From Spizellomyces punctatus DAOM BR117 (Eukaryota), in NCBI GenBank assembly GCA_000182565.2, contig KQ257450.1: DNA of 64,000 bases; one strand, given 5' to 3'. Shown piece by piece: positions 1-54,992 of this stretch (its first letter is position 1; each line of letters begins with the position of its first letter). The notes beneath the pieces were generated by a model. It had not been told where the DNA came from. It worked only from the letters and a program-made list of their open reading frames with translations, and did no database searches. The translations under genes and the position numbers were made by a program.

Positions 1-1091
1 TACCCGATCGCAAAGCATGCCAGTTTTCAAGGTGTGGACGAACAGACAAGGGAGTGAGTGCTTTCGAGCAGGTCCTTGGATTGTGGATCAGGAGTTCATT
101 GTGCGCTAGCACGGCCGGATTAGTGAAGGGGTGGGAAAACACGGAACCAGCAAAGAAGGGTGTGATGAAAGAGTTGGGTTACTGCGATGTGGTGGATGGG
201 GAGATGGATTATGTGGGTATTTTGAACAGGATCTTACCGAAAGACATACGAGTCTTGGGGTGGAGTCCGGTCCCGCCAACCTTTGATGCCAGATTTGACT
301 GCCAATATCGCCGATATAAATACTTCTTTCCTGCCGGAGCATTGGATATTCGCGAAATGAGGACGGCAGCATCACAGTACATTGGTGTACACGATTTCCG
401 AAATTTTTGCAAAGTCGATCCAGCCAAGAACATTTCTTCCTACGAACGCCGAGTTCTGGATGCAGATATAAGACCATTGGGCCTAGAAGATGACCCCAAT
501 TGGGCAGACGGTCCTAATGGAGATGGATTGGATGCGGAGACCGGACAGGCACCTGAAGCGGACAAATGTTATGTCTTTACCGTCACAGGCCACGCCTTTC
601 TCTGGCATCAAGTGCGCTGCATGATGGGTATACTCTTTTTGGTCGGATTACGAAAGGAGCCCTCAAACCTCCCCACAACTCTAATGGATCTGTCAGCGCA
701 TCCCCCAAACAGTGGTCGACCAGCTTACGACATGGCAAGCGAGATACCCCTTGTCCTTGTCGAGTGCGGTTACCCTACGGACATGTTACGATGGCACCAG
801 GATGATGCTGAGAGCATCAAATTGGCCCATGGATTGCGAGAGTTGTGGAGAGATTATGCTGTGAAGAGTACACAGATTGGTCGGTTGATTCAAGGTGTCG
901 TTGGCATGGACGAAAGACGATTGTCATGGGTATCTGGTAAAGAAAAGTACGTACCGGTGATGAAGCTGGGGAGATGCGATTCTGTTGAAGAAAGAATCAG
1001 AAAGAGCGATGACGCAAAGACGAGGAAAAGAGGAGCAGGAACTCCAGACAAGGTCAATGATGCTGGAAAGCGGCCCAAGATGGTCGAATGA
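1..1091 (+). CDS. DEG1: tRNA pseudouridine synthase, TruA family (Deg1/Pus3-like), 5'-truncated by window edge
   Basis: Motifs LNRILPKDIRVLGW, FDARFDC..RRYKY, GVHDFRNFCK and FLWHQVRCMMGILFLVG are typical of Deg1/Pus3. Confidence 0.9.
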   Translation, partial: PDRKACQFSRCGRTDKGVSAFEQVLGLWIRSSLCASTAGLVKGWENTEPAKKGVMKELGYCDVVDGEMDYVGILNRILPKDIRVLGWSPVPPTFDARFDCQYRRYKYFFPAGALDIREMRTAASQYIGVHDFRNFCKVDPAKNISSYERRVLDADIRPLGLEDDPNWADGPNGDGLDAETGQAPEADKCYVFTVTGHAFLWHQVRCMMGILFLVGLRKEPSNLPTTLMDLSAHPPNSGRPAYDMASEIPLVLVECGYPTDMLRWHQDDAESIKLAHGLRELWRDYAVKSTQIGRLIQGVVGMDERRLSWVSGKEKYVPVMKLGRCDSVEERIRKSDDAKTRKRGAGTPDKVNDAGKRPKMVE

Positions 1092-22002: not shown

Positions 22003-24606
22003 ATGGAGAAACCTCTACCTGCACCTCCTCTTATCACTACGACTGCTGCTGTACAAGTAGAGCGACCTGTGATCAAGCAACGTGTGACATCCTTGCCCAG
22101 CGGTGGCCTGGTGGCCATATCTCAGCCGGAAAATGACAACCCTCTCCCTCCGCCTTCTCCAGGGTTAAGTCACAGCTCCCTTCAGTCCCTGAGTGACGAC
22201 GATGCCGTGTCGAGTGAAGAGGACGATATTGCACATATGCCGATTGGGAGTCAGGGGGAACTACAAGATGGATCTTCTCAAGAAGAGCTAAATGGTGTAG
22301 AGGACAAAGAGATATTGAACGAGGAACCTACGAGCGACGCCCATGAATTAATGCCTGCAGGAGAAGTAACTGAAGATCCAAGAAGCGACACTGGTGATTC
22401 AGAAACTGCAAGAGACGTCCTCCCAGGCGTCCCCCCACCCGACCATGTTCCATCACATGCCGCAGATCCCACAGCTCCACGTCCACCTGTCCGGATGTAT
22501 AGACCATTGCCAATTCCACCTGACGCCCGACCCATGAATCCGCATATGCATGCGCCGGGTGCTCATCCTATGACAGTAAGTATACAGAAAGCGAGCATGG
22601 GTCATTTTTCCGATGAAATATACTAATACTGGGACCCTGGAATAGACTTTCCCTCCACATCAACAAGCAATGAATGCTCCGTCACCCGTGGCCCACCCAT
22701 TTTCCCCAGGTCAACATCCTGGCTTCTATCCTTCCGGTCGGCCCTTACCACCACCACCTTTGGGCTGGCATGGCAGTCATCCTCATGCATACTCTCCACG
22801 ACCATATCCACATCAACCACATTTTGGCCGTCCCAGTGGATTTCCGGCTCCGCCTGGTCCTCACATGCACTTTCACCATCCCCATGATTCTGCTCGCCCT
22901 ATCCACCATGGCCAACATACTGGTCGTCCATTCCACCATCATCATGATACAAGTCGCCCTTTGCAGCATCCCCAAGATGCCGCATTTCGTCATCCTCAGG
23001 TTCCGCCTCAAGCACCGTCACTGCGAGCGCCGAGCCCACCATCCGACTCAGTTCCGCGATCCTCTTTTGAGGACAATGAAGACACGAGCACCTTATCAAG
23101 TTCTCTCTCAGGTCTTGACGTGAGCTCAAACGTTTCGGGGACAGATTCTGAAAATGCCCCCAGACCAACGTTTCGAAAATTGACCTTGAAACGACAAAAG
23201 GAAGCAAACAGGGCATCTGTGATGAAAGTATCGTTTGACCAGACGATTGCAATGTATAGAGAAAATGCATTGAAGAGCGGGGATAGCAGACTCAAGTACG
23301 AGTTTGCAAAGTAAGTGACCATCTTCTCCAAATTTGGCGTGCGACTTAGTTTCTGATTTTTGGCTTGTAGATTTTGTATTGAGGAGAGTGCAAAGTTAAC
23401 TGATTCAAAATCAAAAGAGATGGTACGGGCCGCATCTTTCCTCTTCTATGATACGATTCTATTCACTTATACGATCTGATTTTTAGATCATGGATGAAGC
23501 CTTCGCATTACTAAAGGAGCTTTCCAAATCAGGCAATCCGGATGCAATGGTAAGGATCGCAGAGAACGTGGTTATTCTGAGGCGTCGATCTTACTCCAAC
23601 TTATAAAGTACACACTGGGACAAGCCTACCTTGACGACCAAAAGTACGCTCTCGCGCATGCGCAACTAGTGCAAGCAGCAAAACGCTCGCACGCCGGAGC
23701 CTGCTACCTTGTCGCCAAATGCTCAGAAAAAGGCCTCGGCACCAAAAAATCCAATCGTGTGTCACTGGACTTTTACAACAAGGCTGCCCAAGCAGGGTTC
23801 AAACCCGCCTTGTATCGTCTAGGCATGATTGAATTGCGAGGGGAACTAGGGATAAAACGGGACGTGAGGAAGGCGGTCATGTGGCTGAAAAGAGGAGCTG
23901 CCGTCGCTGACAAAGAACATCCACAACCGCTTTTCCAACTCGCCCTCATATTTGAAGCCGGCGTACCACCTCATATTCAACAAGATGAAGGCTATGCCCG
24001 AGGATTACTCATTGAAGCCGCAGGATTGGACTATGCCCCAGCTCAATACAAACTCGGCTGCTGTTACGAGTTTGCTAGAGTCGGATGTCCCCGTGATCTG
24101 GTATGTATCTCATTAGAGCCATTTCCCTTAACCCCCTGTTATTAACTCTTTTCGTATCCAGCGAGAGGCTATCTATTGGTACCGAAAGGCTGCAGAAAAC
24201 GGGGACACGGATGCAGCGTTTGCTTTGGCGGGCTGGTACCTTCAAGGCTGTGAGGTAAGCAGATCGGAATCACTCATTTTCTCTAAACAGGAATAGCAAT
24301 GCTCACACGTTTGTATCCCTCCAGGGCGTTCTAGAGCAAAACGATCACGAAGCTTACTCTTGGACTTATAAAGCTGCCTTGAAGGATCACGCAAAAGCAC
24401 AGTACGCCATTGGGTACTTTTGTGAGACAGGCATTGGCTGCACGCAAAACATGGAAAAGGCTGTACGGTGGTATCGTCTGTCCGCGAGACTGGGCGATGA
24501 ACGGGCGTTGGCGAAAGTTGGACATGAGGCTCCTAGTGCAACGTCATCTGTGTCTTCGGCAACGAAGGAAGGAAAGGGACTTTTTGGGTTTCTGGGCAAG
24601 AAGTAA
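22003..24606 (+). CDS. Sel1-repeat protein, Chs4/Skt5-like chitin synthase activator family
   Basis: Pro/His-rich N-terminus, YRENALKSGD, then several SEL1 repeats (AQYKLGCCYE, AQYAIGYFCETGIG, AVRWYRLSARLG); multi-exon. Confidence 0.8.
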
Positions 24607-24739: not shown

Positions 24740-24811
24740 TGGAGGTTGCGGGGCTCGATCCCGCGGCCTTCCGCATGCAAAGCGGACGATCTACCACTGA
24801 TCTAAACCCCC
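24740..24811 (-). tRNA. tRNA-Ala(UGC), copy 1
   Basis: 72-nt cloverleaf GGGGGTTTAGATCAGTGGTAGATCGTCCGCTTTGCATGCGGAAGGCCGCGGGATCGAGCCCCGCAACCTCCA; anticodon TGC; G3:U70 Ala identity pair; oligo-T downstream. Confidence 0.96.
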
Positions 24812-38236: not shown

Positions 38237-38832
38237 ATTGAATATCTCAGCGTCTGTGGACGCGACAATAAGGGTTGTTACACCCTTTTTGCTTTGGATA
38301 GTGTAAATCCTGCCCCAAAGATTGACAGTCGATAATCTGTTGCACCGTCAGAACGTCGGTTTAGATTTAGGCAGATTACAAAATGCTAGTCATTGTAGGC
38401 GAACAGCTATGGCGATTTTTGACAAGAAAACTAGAAAAGGCTCGATCCCTAATTCACAATGATAGCCATCAAAGGCACATCAACGAGCAATACAGAAATT
38501 TAACGCCAATTTACAAATTAACGAGCAAGTGCAAAAGTATAATACCAATTTACAACCTCAATAGAAGTCGGAAAGTCCTTGTGTATAGCATGGGCAATAT
38601 CTGCATGGTAGTTGCGAATCCGGTTATTAAAGCCAGTATAAAAACAAATGACCGACCCTGATTGAGAAATGAAATCGTGGCAATACGTTGCTTACATAAC
38701 CATCGGAGGTTCGCCCTCAAACAAGGATATCGCCAAGAAAATCCTTTAAAGCTTGGCTGGTCAAACGTCCTAAATACTTGCAAAACTTGGCTGGTCAAAA
38801 GTGCCGACTATCGTTTGGATAGTAACTTTATC

Positions 38833-42974: not shown

Positions 42975-43046
42975 GGGGGTTTAGATCAGTGGTAGATCGT
43001 CCGCTTTGCATGCGGAAGGCCGCGGGATCGAGCCCCGCAACCTCCA
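42975..43046 (+). tRNA. tRNA-Ala(UGC), copy 2
   Basis: Identical 72-nt sequence to copy 1. Confidence 0.96.
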
Positions 43047-51174: not shown

Positions 51175-51469
51175 GCTGGTAACGACGTCTATAAATCAAT
51201 TTGACAAAACAATCTTTAGGTGGCAGAGGGAAACGGCAAACGCGAATGCAGCCATGTCCACGATGAGTCAGCACGGGGCGATCAAAGAGCTCTGGTATTT
51301 CTGCGCAGCGGTGAATGACATTAGTATTTGGGAGCAAAACACTCTACTGGTCAGCAACAATATCTGGAAAGCCCACATTGTTAAATATTAAATACAGTAG
51401 GGATGCCACTAATTTCAAAAAGAAAATCGCTGTACTCTGCTCACACTCTACATCCCTCCAACAACACTT

Positions 51470-51931
51470 TCACACCCGAATCTCCACCGCAGGCGACTCA
51501 AGCTTCCTCCGAGAATTAAACCTCGAATCCAAAAAAACCTTTGACAAAACCAACGTAACCCCCAAAACAGACTACCCAAAAAAACCAACCGTTAGTAAAC
51601 CATCCCACTATTTCCTAGATCCACCAAAAACACAACCTCACACAGTATCGTCACAAATCCAGCAGTCGCATCAACCAACTTCATGTATATCGCAGTAATG
51701 ATTAACCCAGTGGTAAACATGACTGACCACGCAAGAGAAATGTCCTATAAAACACAATGGAAACCAAACACTAGGATTCAGGGGCTCTAAAAGTGATGGT
51801 AATGCATGTTGCCTTGCCTTGGCAGACCGGTTTTTCCACATTGTGTAGAGTTGTGGTAAAAGGCATATAGCTAGTATGCTACCACCGAGGTATCCCAGCA
51901 CTGTAGTGGCGACGGACGTAGTCCCGTCCAT
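51470..51931 (-). CDS. SemiSWEET-like single PQ-loop (3-TM) transporter, 107 aa
   Basis: Exons 51931-51818, 51744-51637 and 51571-51470 give MDGTTSVATTVLGYLGGSILAICLLPQLYTMWKNRSAK/DISLAWSVMFTTGLIITAIYMKLVDATAGFVTILCE/SVLGVTLVLSKVFLDSRFNSRRKLESPAVEIRV*. Confidence 0.82.
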
Positions 51932-52072
51932 TTTCTATGAGTGGTCCAGCGGAGAATGAAAACTTATTATGCTTGTTGTGGTCGCTGCTCTAAGAAGTGG
52001 TAAAGTGGTTACCATGTTTACGGAGTTATGATATAAGTATGTAGGTTGCATATTGTCTGTCATTTTCTAAAT

Positions 52073-52144
52073 GGGGGTTTAGATCAGTGGTAGATCGTCC
52101 GCTTTGCATGCGGAAGGCCGCGGGATCGAGCCCCGCAACCTCCA
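52073..52144 (+). tRNA. tRNA-Ala(UGC), copy 3
   Basis: Identical 72-nt sequence to copies 1 and 2. Confidence 0.96.
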
Positions 52145-52370
52145 CTAAGCTTTCGTTTGGATAAACTTTTTGCTTTCCGCTCCTACCAAATTATTCTCGT
52201 TGGTTGTGAGACAGATGCATGATAATATGGTTGCTTCCATTTGTATTGCCGGGACACAGATTTTTCTCTCCTTTCCAATAGTTTTCCCCGTTCTTATGCA
52301 AATAAGCCAATCAACAATACGGGCCCGATTCATAACACATCTTATTTCGTTGTGTATATCGTTGTGAATA

Positions 52371-54992
52371 TCAAATACAATCTTCCCTGCCCTGTTCAGA
52401 TTTGCTAATGTTAGGCAATGATGCCAAAATCCGAAAAAACTCGTGGCATCGCTAGACATCACGCAGTGAGTGTGAGACTTGCTTAGTTACAGGCATCAAC
52501 ATGCGCCCAACATACTTGTTGGATTTCCAGGCTTGGCGACTCCTTCAGCGCCTCCACGGTAGAGATTACAACGGGTGGACAGGTTCCAACCCTTTGTACG
52601 AGTTTGTTGATACATTGGAGGACATAGCTTGTAGTGGACAGATCTGTGCCGCGAAGATGTCAAGTATACACATCGCCGTGGAGATTCTCTAGTTCTCACT
52701 CGCTCACCTTCAACTTTTGGTGCATTGAGTAGCCGGCCCATTCTATCTAGAACATCATGCGCTTCTGATGGGACAGTAATAAACTCTGACAGTACCTGGT
52801 CAACCACCAGTTACTTTTATCCCCAGGTAGAAGCAGATACCACAAGGGTTTATAATGATCTTACCCATACGGCAAATTGCAGTAGCGTCACGTCCATCGC
52901 ATCCTTGACCAATATCTCCAAGCATTCCTTGACACTTAATTGCACAGCACCCGCATCTTCTTGTAACAGAACCGCATTCAAGCGACTGATGACAGAGGGT
53001 CGCGCATCCTGGTGCACCGAATGCAATGCTTGAAATAGAATTCTGCAAGTTTCTTCCGATGTCACCGATAATGTAGATAGATCAGAACAGCAAAAAAGTT
53101 AAGGTAATGCACGCTCAAATATGGGTATTGACGTGCAAGGAAAAAAGGATATCGATTGAGAAGGTTAACAAGGGTCTCGCACATCCGAAGCTGAGTACAC
53201 GCATCCCCTGATTTGCGTAGGTGGTCTAACACATGATCGACTATCGAGTGGTAGTCCTCCTTGGTAGCCACCAAGCAAAGGATTTTCAATCCCTAAGCCA
53301 ATCGGAGCACCAAAGTTGGACAATTATATATATCTGTATGCGACAGAAACGGTACATACCATTTGCTCCAGTGAATCATCGCCAGACCGTAAGGATTCTT
53401 CTACCTCAGCTCTAAACCGTGAGAGTATGTCCCCAACGTTCGCACCTACAAGCAGGTATAGCCCCGCAAGTCCGAGATACCGAAGATTACTATTCGCCGA
53501 TTGAAGCAGCCGGGACAGGATTTCCGGCGCGCATCCGAGATGATCGGTAGAAGCCACTGGAGCGACAATGCTCAAAGCCTTAATCCCTCCATAGATAATC
53601 GCTGCATTTGCAAACTGGTCATGAATAGCACTGACAAACTTTTAGAACTGGCGCCCAAATTACCGTACGATGCATCTCCTCCATCTTGGGCATTTTCCAA
53701 GGTGTCAAGAATGACAGGATGAGCTGTCTGAGCTGCCCTGCGCTGTAATAAGCCATCCGTTGCGCATTCACAGCTCGGACACATGCTCTTACTTCATATC
53801 GCAGGCACCTAACGTTCCGATTATCTCAAGACAATCGAGCTGTATCCACGGAGCGGTAACTCCATGGAAGTCATATTGCGTTGCCAGCCGGCCGTTAATC
53901 GCTTGTCGATGGATGTGAATGAACGCCGACAGAAGTGGGAGGTATGCCTTTGTGTCTGTCTACATAAATGGCATCTATGAGAACACAGTCTTAAGCCACT
54001 TGGAGGGATTTCCCGGAACTGACGTTACGGGATTGACACAGCAGGGTCCGGTACGTGGTCAATGCCACACTCATTACACCAGGATCCTGATCTGCTAGGA
54101 CTCGTTTCAATTTGCTAACTGCAACTGCCATCGCGGTTGGATTTATGGTTGAGAATTTGCGTATCACGGCAGCGGCACGCTTTCGCACAAGTGCATTCTG
54201 TATATAGATGGGGGTCTCAAAATAACCGTGCGTTTCGCAAAAAGAAAAGTTAGAATAGGAATCTGTACATGCCTCATGACGAAGACAGCGCAGGACGGGG
54301 GACAACAAAGGGGAAATCATATCGGCGTTGGCTATCCCACATAGAGCTGCTAAGGCAAGAGCTTGTTCATTGATGTTGTCACTATTGAGATCCTGTGAAA
54401 TGTTGAAGCATTCTCACTTTTACTCAACAGCGAGTGTATTCATGTGAAGGGGTACAAACATACCCGTTGCAAAGTGTTTACCATCAACAGGCTGAGTTCA
54501 TGTCGTTCGTGCAAGAACATGGACACGCAGAGATACCCTTCGTCACCACCACAGAAAAATGGCATTACGGTGCTGTGAATAGCACCCTATATAACAGACA
54601 AATGGCCTCACCAACGTGCTTTTCGTAAAGCGATTTTGCGTCGTGCGTCAGCATAATTGCTTTGACATGGGCAAAATCCGCGGTACTGTAACCCATAGTT
54701 TCGCAGAATAGACATCGCAAGAGATACTCTGCTGTACAGCGTACGGCTGTTTCATCTTGGGATGAGAGATTGATTCGCAAGGTCTCCACCTCGGCTTTTA
54801 GAATTTGGCGCTCCTGTTGTTTAGTTTTTGCAAACGCTACGGAATTTAGCAGCCGTCGAAACTCTGGGGTTAACTGACTATTTTGCCATGTATCTCGCTC
54901 TCTGTTTGAAGAGAGGGTACAGCTTGAGCACACAAGAGAATATATCAGACTGGAACAACGTTTGCTTGTTACCGCTGTGGTGATGGCTCCAT
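52371..54992 (-). CDS. AP4E1: Adaptor complex AP-4 epsilon subunit (trunk domain only)
   Basis: EYLLRCLFCETMGYS..FAHVKAIML....LYEKHVGYLCVSMFLHERHELSLLMVNTLQRDL; LVRKRAA; YDFHGVTAPWIQLDCL; SANSNLRYLGL; terminal SLEIQQRCHEF then stop. Start codon is approximate. Confidence 0.82.

Follow-up and report, generated by a model that had tools for sequence, protein, structure and literature searches.

Within a 64-kb stretch of Spizellomyces punctatus DAOM BR117 contig KQ257450.1 (the window, to which all positions refer), a minus-strand gene raises the question of whether a fungus can keep the epsilon subunit of adaptor protein complex 4 (AP-4) as a trunk alone, and what such a trunk would do. AP-4 is an ancient coat complex, and in humans hereditary spastic paraplegia results when it is lost. 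Repeated losses of the complex have been reported in fungi (PMC4022609; PMC6057913). An earlier note, made from the sequence alone, had read the gene as an AP-4 epsilon in a fungus, truncated to the trunk without hinge or ear. In this study, the gene was identified as the S. punctatus AP-4 epsilon orthologue, and it was found to be expressed and to encode a complete trunk that is followed by neither hinge nor ear.

The spliced gene consists of 13 exons, extending from the start ATG at 54992-54990 to the stop TGA at 52373-52371, with 1806 coding bases and a product of 601 aa. In phmmer searches against all PDB chains, human AP-4 epsilon was the best solved-structure match (155.9 bits), followed by AP-1 gamma (86.5 bits), AP-3 delta (61.3 bits), and AP-2 alpha (47.4 bits), a lead of 69 bits over AP-1 gamma. 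The human chains were those of the epsilon trunk, residues 1-612 (PDB 9u9i, 9u9j, 9u9r, and 9u9s; PMC12923877), and the alignment covered chain residues 38-113 and 116-567 at an identity of only about 25-30%. Exon 2 taken alone matched human epsilon residues 38-113 with an E value of 6.9e-5 (26.6 bits), the value for gamma being 0.086 (16.7 bits). With the public model of the gene as query, Pfam detected the Adaptin_N domain (PF01602; E 1.6e-44) over profile positions 62-520 of 524, with nothing C-terminal to it. An exhaustive search of 1.84 billion representatives returned 1657 matches at E<=0.001, of which 145 were at E<=1e-30; when 20 relatives were scanned with Pfam, 11 carried the epsilon-specific appendage platform PF14807 and none had a gamma or alpha ear above the cut-off. 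The nearest relatives were among those with PF14807, which, together with the 69-bit lead, upholds the epsilon assignment of the earlier note; its placement in a fungus agrees with the identity of the translation to S. punctatus SPPG_00195 over 497 residues.

Phylogenetic analysis gave the same assignment. The window protein lay inside the fungal clade of a FastTree tree of 134 rows, and in a quick IQ-TREE tree of 37 hand-chosen rows and 599 columns it fell within a fungal epsilon clade supported at 99 by the Shimodaira-Hasegawa-like approximate likelihood ratio test (SH-aLRT). This clade included Paraglomus, Diversispora, Gigaspora, Mortierella, Calcarisporiella, Radiomyces, and Pilobolus, and a chytrid subclade (SH-aLRT 98) was formed by two Synchytrium species, Fimicolochytrium, and the two Spizellomyces. 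Clustering with AP-1 gamma or AP-2 alpha, the outcome that would have spoken against the assignment, was not seen in this tree, which held one AP-2 alpha (P0003) as its sole outgroup and no gamma or delta rows. Since the branching order of the chytrid sequences follows that of the organisms, the epsilon gene is taken to be vertically inherited. The S. punctatus protein was also classed as epsilon by phylogeny in Barlow et al. 2014 (PMC4022609).

The C-terminal end of the product was examined for remains of the hinge and ear. In the public 507-aa model (P0002), which shares the C-terminus, residue 490 is the last of the Pfam trunk domain, and the stop follows 17 residues later. The AlphaFold2 model was all-helical, with 25 helices, a predicted local distance difference test (pLDDT) score of 93.0, and a predicted template modelling (pTM) score of 0.86; its last helix comprised P0002 residues 477-492, and residues 499-507 were disordered (pLDDT<50). 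In the alignment, the terminal helix EIQQRCHEFFRILASL paired with the D.QQR..E...L trunk end of full-length epsilons, which continue past this point with a conserved LSFL..V....GA.PY segment and then the hinge and ear. The C-terminal reading of the earlier note was right, and its residues cross a splice junction: SLEIQQ closes exon 12 (52643-52516), and RCHEFFRILASLPNISKSEQGREDCI with the stop (RCHEFF...EDCI) forms exon 13 (52451-52371).

The C-terminal 270 residues of 72 relatives with long tails were used to build a hidden Markov model (HMM) of the ear, and this model detected 97 proteins at E<1e-3, including the 72 training rows. No match to it was found in the 601-aa model, P0001, P0002, P0004, or P0161, and P0006 gave just E 9.8. 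Among 1642 six-frame open reading frame (ORF) pieces of the window, the best value was E 0.42 at 22627-22884, far from the epsilon gene. Pfam likewise found no PF14807 appendage platform in the S. punctatus protein. A hinge motif (consensus K...A..LF.G, alignment A2), applied as a regular expression, matched 41 of 86 relatives of at least 850 aa, as well as Synchytrium microbalum, Paraglomus, Diversispora, and Gigaspora rosea, and was not present in the Spizellomyces model. The same expression matched the window at 38736 on the minus strand, 14 kb from the gene, and this was taken as chance.

The 3′ end of the transcript was located with RNA run X4 from the same species, of which about 6 in 100 were read and in which joints were listed only when present in at least three reads. 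Coverage was 3′-biased and thin over exons 1-10 (minus-strand depth over exon 2 was 1-3.5). The last two introns were supported by spliced reads, and the minus-strand depth was 17-19 across the last two exons, being 18.6 at 52352-52495, 5.96 at 52208-52351, and 0 at 52064-52207. Because the depth falls to zero before the tRNA gene that bounds the locus, the transcript stops before this gene and does not run into the next minus-strand gene, which encodes an unrelated PQ-loop protein. No joints to exons downstream of exon 13 were listed, and the stop in the public model SPPG_00195 is identical. RNA evidence for the stop at 52371 had been called for in the earlier note: the transcript ends within 52208-52351, and splicing to additional ear exons was not seen in X4. 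The tRNA gene, noticed at about 230 bp beyond the stop, was identified by ARAGORN as tRNA-Ala(TGC) at a distance of 225 nt. These results indicate that the gene is expressed, that its 3′ end lies just beyond exon 13, and that S. punctatus epsilon ends with its trunk.

The features of the locus are listed in Table 1. Of the 12 introns, 10 are GT-AG, one is GC-AG (intron 4), and one is AT-AC (intron 9). The LRHE/NALVRK junction made by removal of intron 4 is also used by P0002, and homologues align without a 25-aa insert at this place; retention of intron 4, which is open in frame, would add 25 residues within a HEAT helix. Intron 9 looks like a U12-type AT-AC minor intron, judging from its donor, branch-site-like, and terminal sequences, and minor introns have been reported in S. 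punctatus (PMC10639083). Its junction, NR/LSVTSEE, is the same in P0002, and the X4 reads crossing it numbered zero. The start codon and the AT-AC and GC-AG junctions were thus placed by homology and the public model and not by reads. The N-terminal motifs singled out in the earlier note were all recovered in the spliced translation: CETMGY in exon 2, EKHVG followed by YLCVSMFLHERHEL across intron 2, and YDFHGVTAPWIQL in exon 6.

Table 1. Features of the AP-4 epsilon locus in the window
Feature	Position	Strand	Basis or remarks
AP-4 epsilon gene (assigned AP4E1 orthologue), trunk-only, 601 aa	52371..54992	-	Spliced model; identity to P0002; PDB and Pfam matches
Exon 1, carries start ATG	54973..54992	-	Missing from public 507-aa model; N-terminus MEPSPQRERDT... 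recurs in S. palustris P0001
Exon 2, helix alpha3 and CETMGY motif	54612..54901	-	Missing from public model
Exon 3, YLCVSMFLHERHELSLLMVNTLQR, helix alpha5 with L120 and L121 (equivalents of human L132 and L133)	54464..54537	-	Spliced model; alignment
Exon 4	54273..54392	-	Spliced model
Intron 4, GC-AG, 75 nt, open in frame	54198..54272	-	Donor GCATGT, acceptor ATACAG
Exon 5	54024..54197	-	Spliced model; junction agrees with P0002
Exon 6, holds YDFHGVTAPWIQL motif	53793..53959	-	Spliced model
Exon 7	53664..53737	-	Spliced model
Exon 8	53360..53601	-	Spliced model
Exon 9	53153..53292	-	Spliced model
Intron 9, apparent U12-type AT-AC, 80 nt	53073..53152	-	Donor ATATCCTT, branch-site-like ACCTTAAC 25 nt upstream of 3′ end, terminal CTAC
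Exon 10	52865..53072	-	Spliced model
Exon 11	52708..52795	-	Spliced model; joint 52643>52708 in 4 RNA reads
Exon 12, ends ...SPSLEIQQ	52516..52643	-	Spliced model; joints at both sides in RNA
Exon 13, RCHEFFRILASLP... then TGA; last trunk helix and about 15 disordered residues	52371..52451	-	Joint 52451>52516 in 5 RNA reads
3′ untranslated region	52208..52370	-	RNA depth; transcript end within 52208-52351
tRNA-Ala(TGC), beyond the epsilon stop, bounds the locus	52073..52145	+	ARAGORN; plus-strand read depth 8.3

Comparison of the spliced model with public proteins indicates that the public annotation needs correction, the product being 601 aa rather than 507 and two of the introns non-canonical. 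Residues 105-601 of the model are identical to residues 11-507 of SPPG_00195, which begins at a methionine within intron 2 and is without exons 1 and 2, equal to 104 residues that include helix alpha3 of the predicted ARF1 site. When all 601 residues were used as the query, relatives paired from about model residue 14 with their own residues 3-10 and scored higher, the match to P0005 rising from 212.7 to 262.8 bits once the N-terminal exons were included; the N-terminal extension is therefore considered real. A word-index protein search with exon 2 gave a single match, Spizellomyces sp. 'palustris' P0001 (g04927, 529 aa), and SPPG_00195 came from a further search of this type; such searches, with one to three matches each, gave little beyond the closest relatives. 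P0001 retains exons 1 and 2, omits about 100 N-terminal residues, and after SLEIQQ enters an exon of the downstream gene (DISLAWSVMF..., equivalent to window 51592-51744). Since this tail belongs to the PQ-loop gene, the fusion in P0001 is a prediction artefact. When the P0001 chimera was compared with window 51470-51744 on the minus strand, the gene order was the same in both Spizellomyces species.

Relatives were then compared in the length of sequence that follows the trunk. The trunk end was reached by 113 of 149 matches, among which the tail was at least 330 residues in 71, 151-329 in 26, 41-150 in 9, and no more than 40 in 7; this count leaves out Mortierella P0114, which had a tail of 6 in an earlier alignment and for which the second phmmer run gave one of two stretches. 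Two of the seven short-tailed proteins were fragments with longer cluster-mates, on 2-5 kb contigs, and one was a transcriptome ORF. Among the chytrids, an ear was not present in any of five orthologues as annotated, all of them from genome assemblies: S. punctatus (601 aa in the corrected model), S. palustris (529 aa), Fimicolochytrium jonesii (548 aa), Synchytrium endobioticum (585 aa, ending about 20 residues past the trunk), and Synchytrium microbalum (P0006, 636 aa, with no detectable ear). The aligned parts of S. palustris were unbroken and 85% identical to the model (414 of 486 aligned columns), with identities of 42% for Fimicolochytrium and 29-31% for the two Synchytrium species. In the S. 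microbalum protein, the trunk is followed by a low-complexity stretch at 508-636, some 129 residues long, in which the hinge motif is present as LSLALFGD at 576; the chytrid tails taken together look like a graded decay. The ear is kept in Paraglomus, Calcarisporiella, and Radiomyces, as detected by PF14807, and in Diversispora and Gigaspora rosea, as detected by the ear HMM.

The gene is probably best explained as a vertically inherited, trunk-only epsilon that still does the job of the trunk, left over from an AP-4 in the course of being dismantled in fungi. The earlier note had likewise proposed a minimal or degenerating AP-4, and this agrees with the report of epsilon as the sole AP-4 subunit of S. 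punctatus (PMC4022609). The ancestral hinge and ear, which recruit accessory proteins in other eukaryotes, would have been lost, leaving a gene that ends past the last trunk helix, and recruitment of accessory proteins by the ear would have been given up with them. As the frame stays open across relatives ranging from 85% to 29-31% identity, purifying selection is inferred to maintain the trunk protein in spite of its divergence. At Golgi or endosomal membranes, the trunk would use helices alpha3 and alpha5 to bind ARF1 in its GTP-bound form, and it would also be the scaffold on which a small and another large subunit assemble, its partners being either divergent AP-4 subunits that escaped detection or subunits borrowed from other AP complexes.

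The proposed role in ARF1 binding is drawn from the human protein. The human epsilon trunk (1-612) has been reported to bind ARF1 via helices alpha3 and alpha5, with L132E and L133E severely impairing binding, I99D/I102E retaining some, and beta4 being dispensable (PMC12923877). Human I99, I102, L132, and L133 pair with V86, I89, L120, and L121 of the S. punctatus protein, and these positions were hydrophobic in all 14 aligned sequences covering them. The two proteins are thus alike in the hydrophobic positions of the site, which in S. punctatus is predicted from sequence. They differ at the other end: the long hinge and ear of human epsilon were cut off for the structures (PMC12923877), and the S. 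punctatus protein ends there naturally.

Several observations weigh against a selected, working trunk or against parts of this account. The ARF1-site hydrophobics lie in helices and could be conserved for folding alone. Barlow et al. 2014 (PMC4022609) report epsilon as the one AP-4 subunit detected in S. punctatus, and human epsilon expressed alone is reported to be poorly soluble and unstable (PMC12923877); with no known partner and an unstable lone human subunit, a working lone trunk is therefore unexpected. Hand-summed IQ-TREE branches put the chytrids at about 2.0 changes per column from the fungal node and Glomeromycotina at about 1.0, a difference of about twofold, and such a long chytrid branch is as compatible with relaxed constraint as with a new role. 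The four chytrid proteins other than that of S. punctatus are automatic predictions with unverified 3′ ends, and P0001 and P0004 are visibly wrong elsewhere. As to the identity of the gene, both trees were built without gamma or delta rows and with a lone AP-2 alpha outgroup. AP-1 gamma chains took the top places in a Foldseek search (TMq 0.78-0.80), and AP-4 epsilon chains appeared at ranks 16, 21, and 23 (TMq 0.51-0.52). In an Atlas feature search, the leading cluster (0.94) was named AP-1 gamma, and one named for epsilon was in fifth place (0.93). Both searches agree on a large-adaptin trunk at the level of fold and family and do not separate epsilon from gamma, and the Foldseek ranking mirrors the conformation of the solenoid, not ancestry.

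To our knowledge, a large adaptin subunit is in other cases held to be unstable when it is not part of its tetramer. We tentatively put forward a bolder form of the favoured account, in which the chytrids, having lost beta4, mu4, and sigma4, keep a selected, free-standing, ear-less epsilon that would either act alone as an ARF1 effector or join AP-1 or AP-3 subunits in a hybrid coat; this is possible rather than probable.

Among the other explanations, the one that survives best, and that we nevertheless hold to be unlikely, is a functionless relic, that is, a transcribed trunk-only epsilon whose frame is open only for lack of time since the other AP-4 subunits vanished. Such a relic would suit the repeated loss of AP-4 in fungi with epsilon alone reported in S. 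punctatus (PMC4022609; PMC6057913), the instability of lone human epsilon (PMC12923877), the chytrid branch twice as long as that of the ear-keeping Glomeromycotina, and the low RNA depth over the gene except at its 3′ end. It does not sit well with the annotated open frames in five chytrid genomes of three genera, at 29-42% identity between genera, which point to long survival after the loss of the ear, or with usable splice signals at all 12 introns, the GC-AG and U12-type ones included. The AlphaFold2 model is very confident (pLDDT 93). In addition, neutral divergence of 15% at the amino-acid level from S. palustris would, by a rough estimate and not a computation, predict several stops or frameshifts in 1.8 kb, and none were seen.

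It is improbable that the ear is encoded elsewhere, by a split gene, by 3′ exons beyond the window, or in a rare isoform, so that the complex would keep its epsilon appendage. The ear search covered the 64-kb window alone, the RNA run was read in small part with a threshold of three reads for joints, and the roughly 129 post-trunk residues with LSLALFGD in S. microbalum indicate that remnants of the tail exist in chytrids. The locus itself gives such an ear little room: no minus-strand RNA reads cover the interval from the 3′ untranslated region to the next gene, alternative joints were not listed, none of the 1642 ORF pieces of the window matched the ear HMM, and the next minus-strand gene encodes the unrelated PQ-loop protein. 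The S. palustris prediction jumps from exon 12 to the same PQ-loop neighbour, so no ear exons lie between them there.

A misassigned paralogue, such as a fast-evolving AP-1 gamma or another large adaptin resembling epsilon, is hardly credible, since the first rank of AP-1 gamma in the Foldseek and Atlas searches and the lack of gamma and delta rows in the trees are set against a 69-bit lead of epsilon that is repeated in order by exon 2 alone, a position nested in a fungal clade with several PF14807-bearing members, and the assignment to epsilon by the phylogeny of Barlow et al. 2014 (PMC4022609).

That S. punctatus has epsilon as its only AP-4 subunit is already published (PMC4022609), and the protein is in NCBI; the epsilon-4 of Barlow et al. 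2014 and SPPG_00195 are the same gene as that described here, the public model being 104 residues short at the N-terminus. The trunk-only architecture was not found in literature searches on AP-4 in chytrids and fungi, which gave only PMC4022609, an exomer study, and an AP-2 study; in the main text of PMC4022609, the terms appendage, hinge, ear domain, and truncat- do not occur. The trunk-only architecture, the loss of the ear common to other chytrids, and the corrected 601-residue model thus appear to be new, none of them having been found in print.

Several known proteins can be compared with the trunk-only epsilon. The ear-bearing epsilon-4 proteins of Paraglomus brasilianum (CAG8612959.1, 940 aa), Calcarisporiella thermophila (839 aa), and Radiomyces spectabilis (827 aa) belong to the same clade (SH-aLRT 99) and have PF14807 and 241-362 post-trunk residues, both of which are missing from the Spizellomyces protein. 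In Cryptococcus neoformans, epsilon-4 is likewise the only AP-4 subunit reported (PMC4022609), a likeness that is drawn here from the description. The beta2 subunit of AP-2 in higher fungi, which is described as lacking the clathrin-binding domain (PMC5338921), is similar in having lost a C-terminal interaction module while the subunit is still used; it is a different subunit and belongs to another complex, AP-2, which in these fungi lacks nothing else and is indispensable to polar growth (PMC5338921). AP-1 gamma, the closest paralogue (PDB 1w63, 4p6z, and 6cri), shares the trunk fold (TMq up to 0.80) and the Pfam family, and differs in scoring 69 bits below epsilon and in bearing a gamma-type ear.

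A trunk-only epsilon in several chytrids, for which partner subunits have not been reported, points to an order in which a coat complex is dismantled, with the ear going first and the trunk last, and it offers a natural test of what an epsilon trunk is capable of without its appendage and perhaps outside a tetramer. The question is open to experiment, since S. punctatus grows in culture and can be transformed. The gene also adds 104 N-terminal residues to the public annotation and provides what looks like a clear-cut fungal U12-type intron.

Epsilon orthologues were also observed in a Mortierella species (P0114) and in Radiomyces, Pilobolus, and Calcarisporiella (together P0091, P0144, and P0147), two of the four with the PF14807 ear. 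AP-4 subunits were reported as not found in the Mucoromycotina genomes sampled at the time of Barlow et al. 2014 (PMC4022609); the range of AP-4 in fungi is therefore wider than in that study.

Some minor observations were made on the locus and its surroundings. In window 54224-54799, X4 first mates were found on the plus strand at a depth of up to 7.3, antisense to epsilon exons 2-4. Both minus-strand genes give minus-strand first mates in X4, and no plus-strand ORF of note is present at 54224-54799; these reads may represent an antisense transcript or a library artefact. Ten reads with a poly(A) tail, seen as a run of T on the plus strand, showed that the downstream PQ-loop gene is polyadenylated at 51363 on the minus strand. 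The tRNA-Ala(TGC) gene occurs three times in the 64 kb, at 24740-24811 (minus strand), 42975-43046 (plus strand), and 52073-52145 (plus strand), with identical 72-nt bodies and unrelated flanks (about 26-30% identity). DNA contigs from runs X1-X3, of low depth, retain the introns; they may derive from the sample of the assembly itself and were not counted as independent. As expected, because the tRNA gene is multi-copy, these contigs break at its borders.

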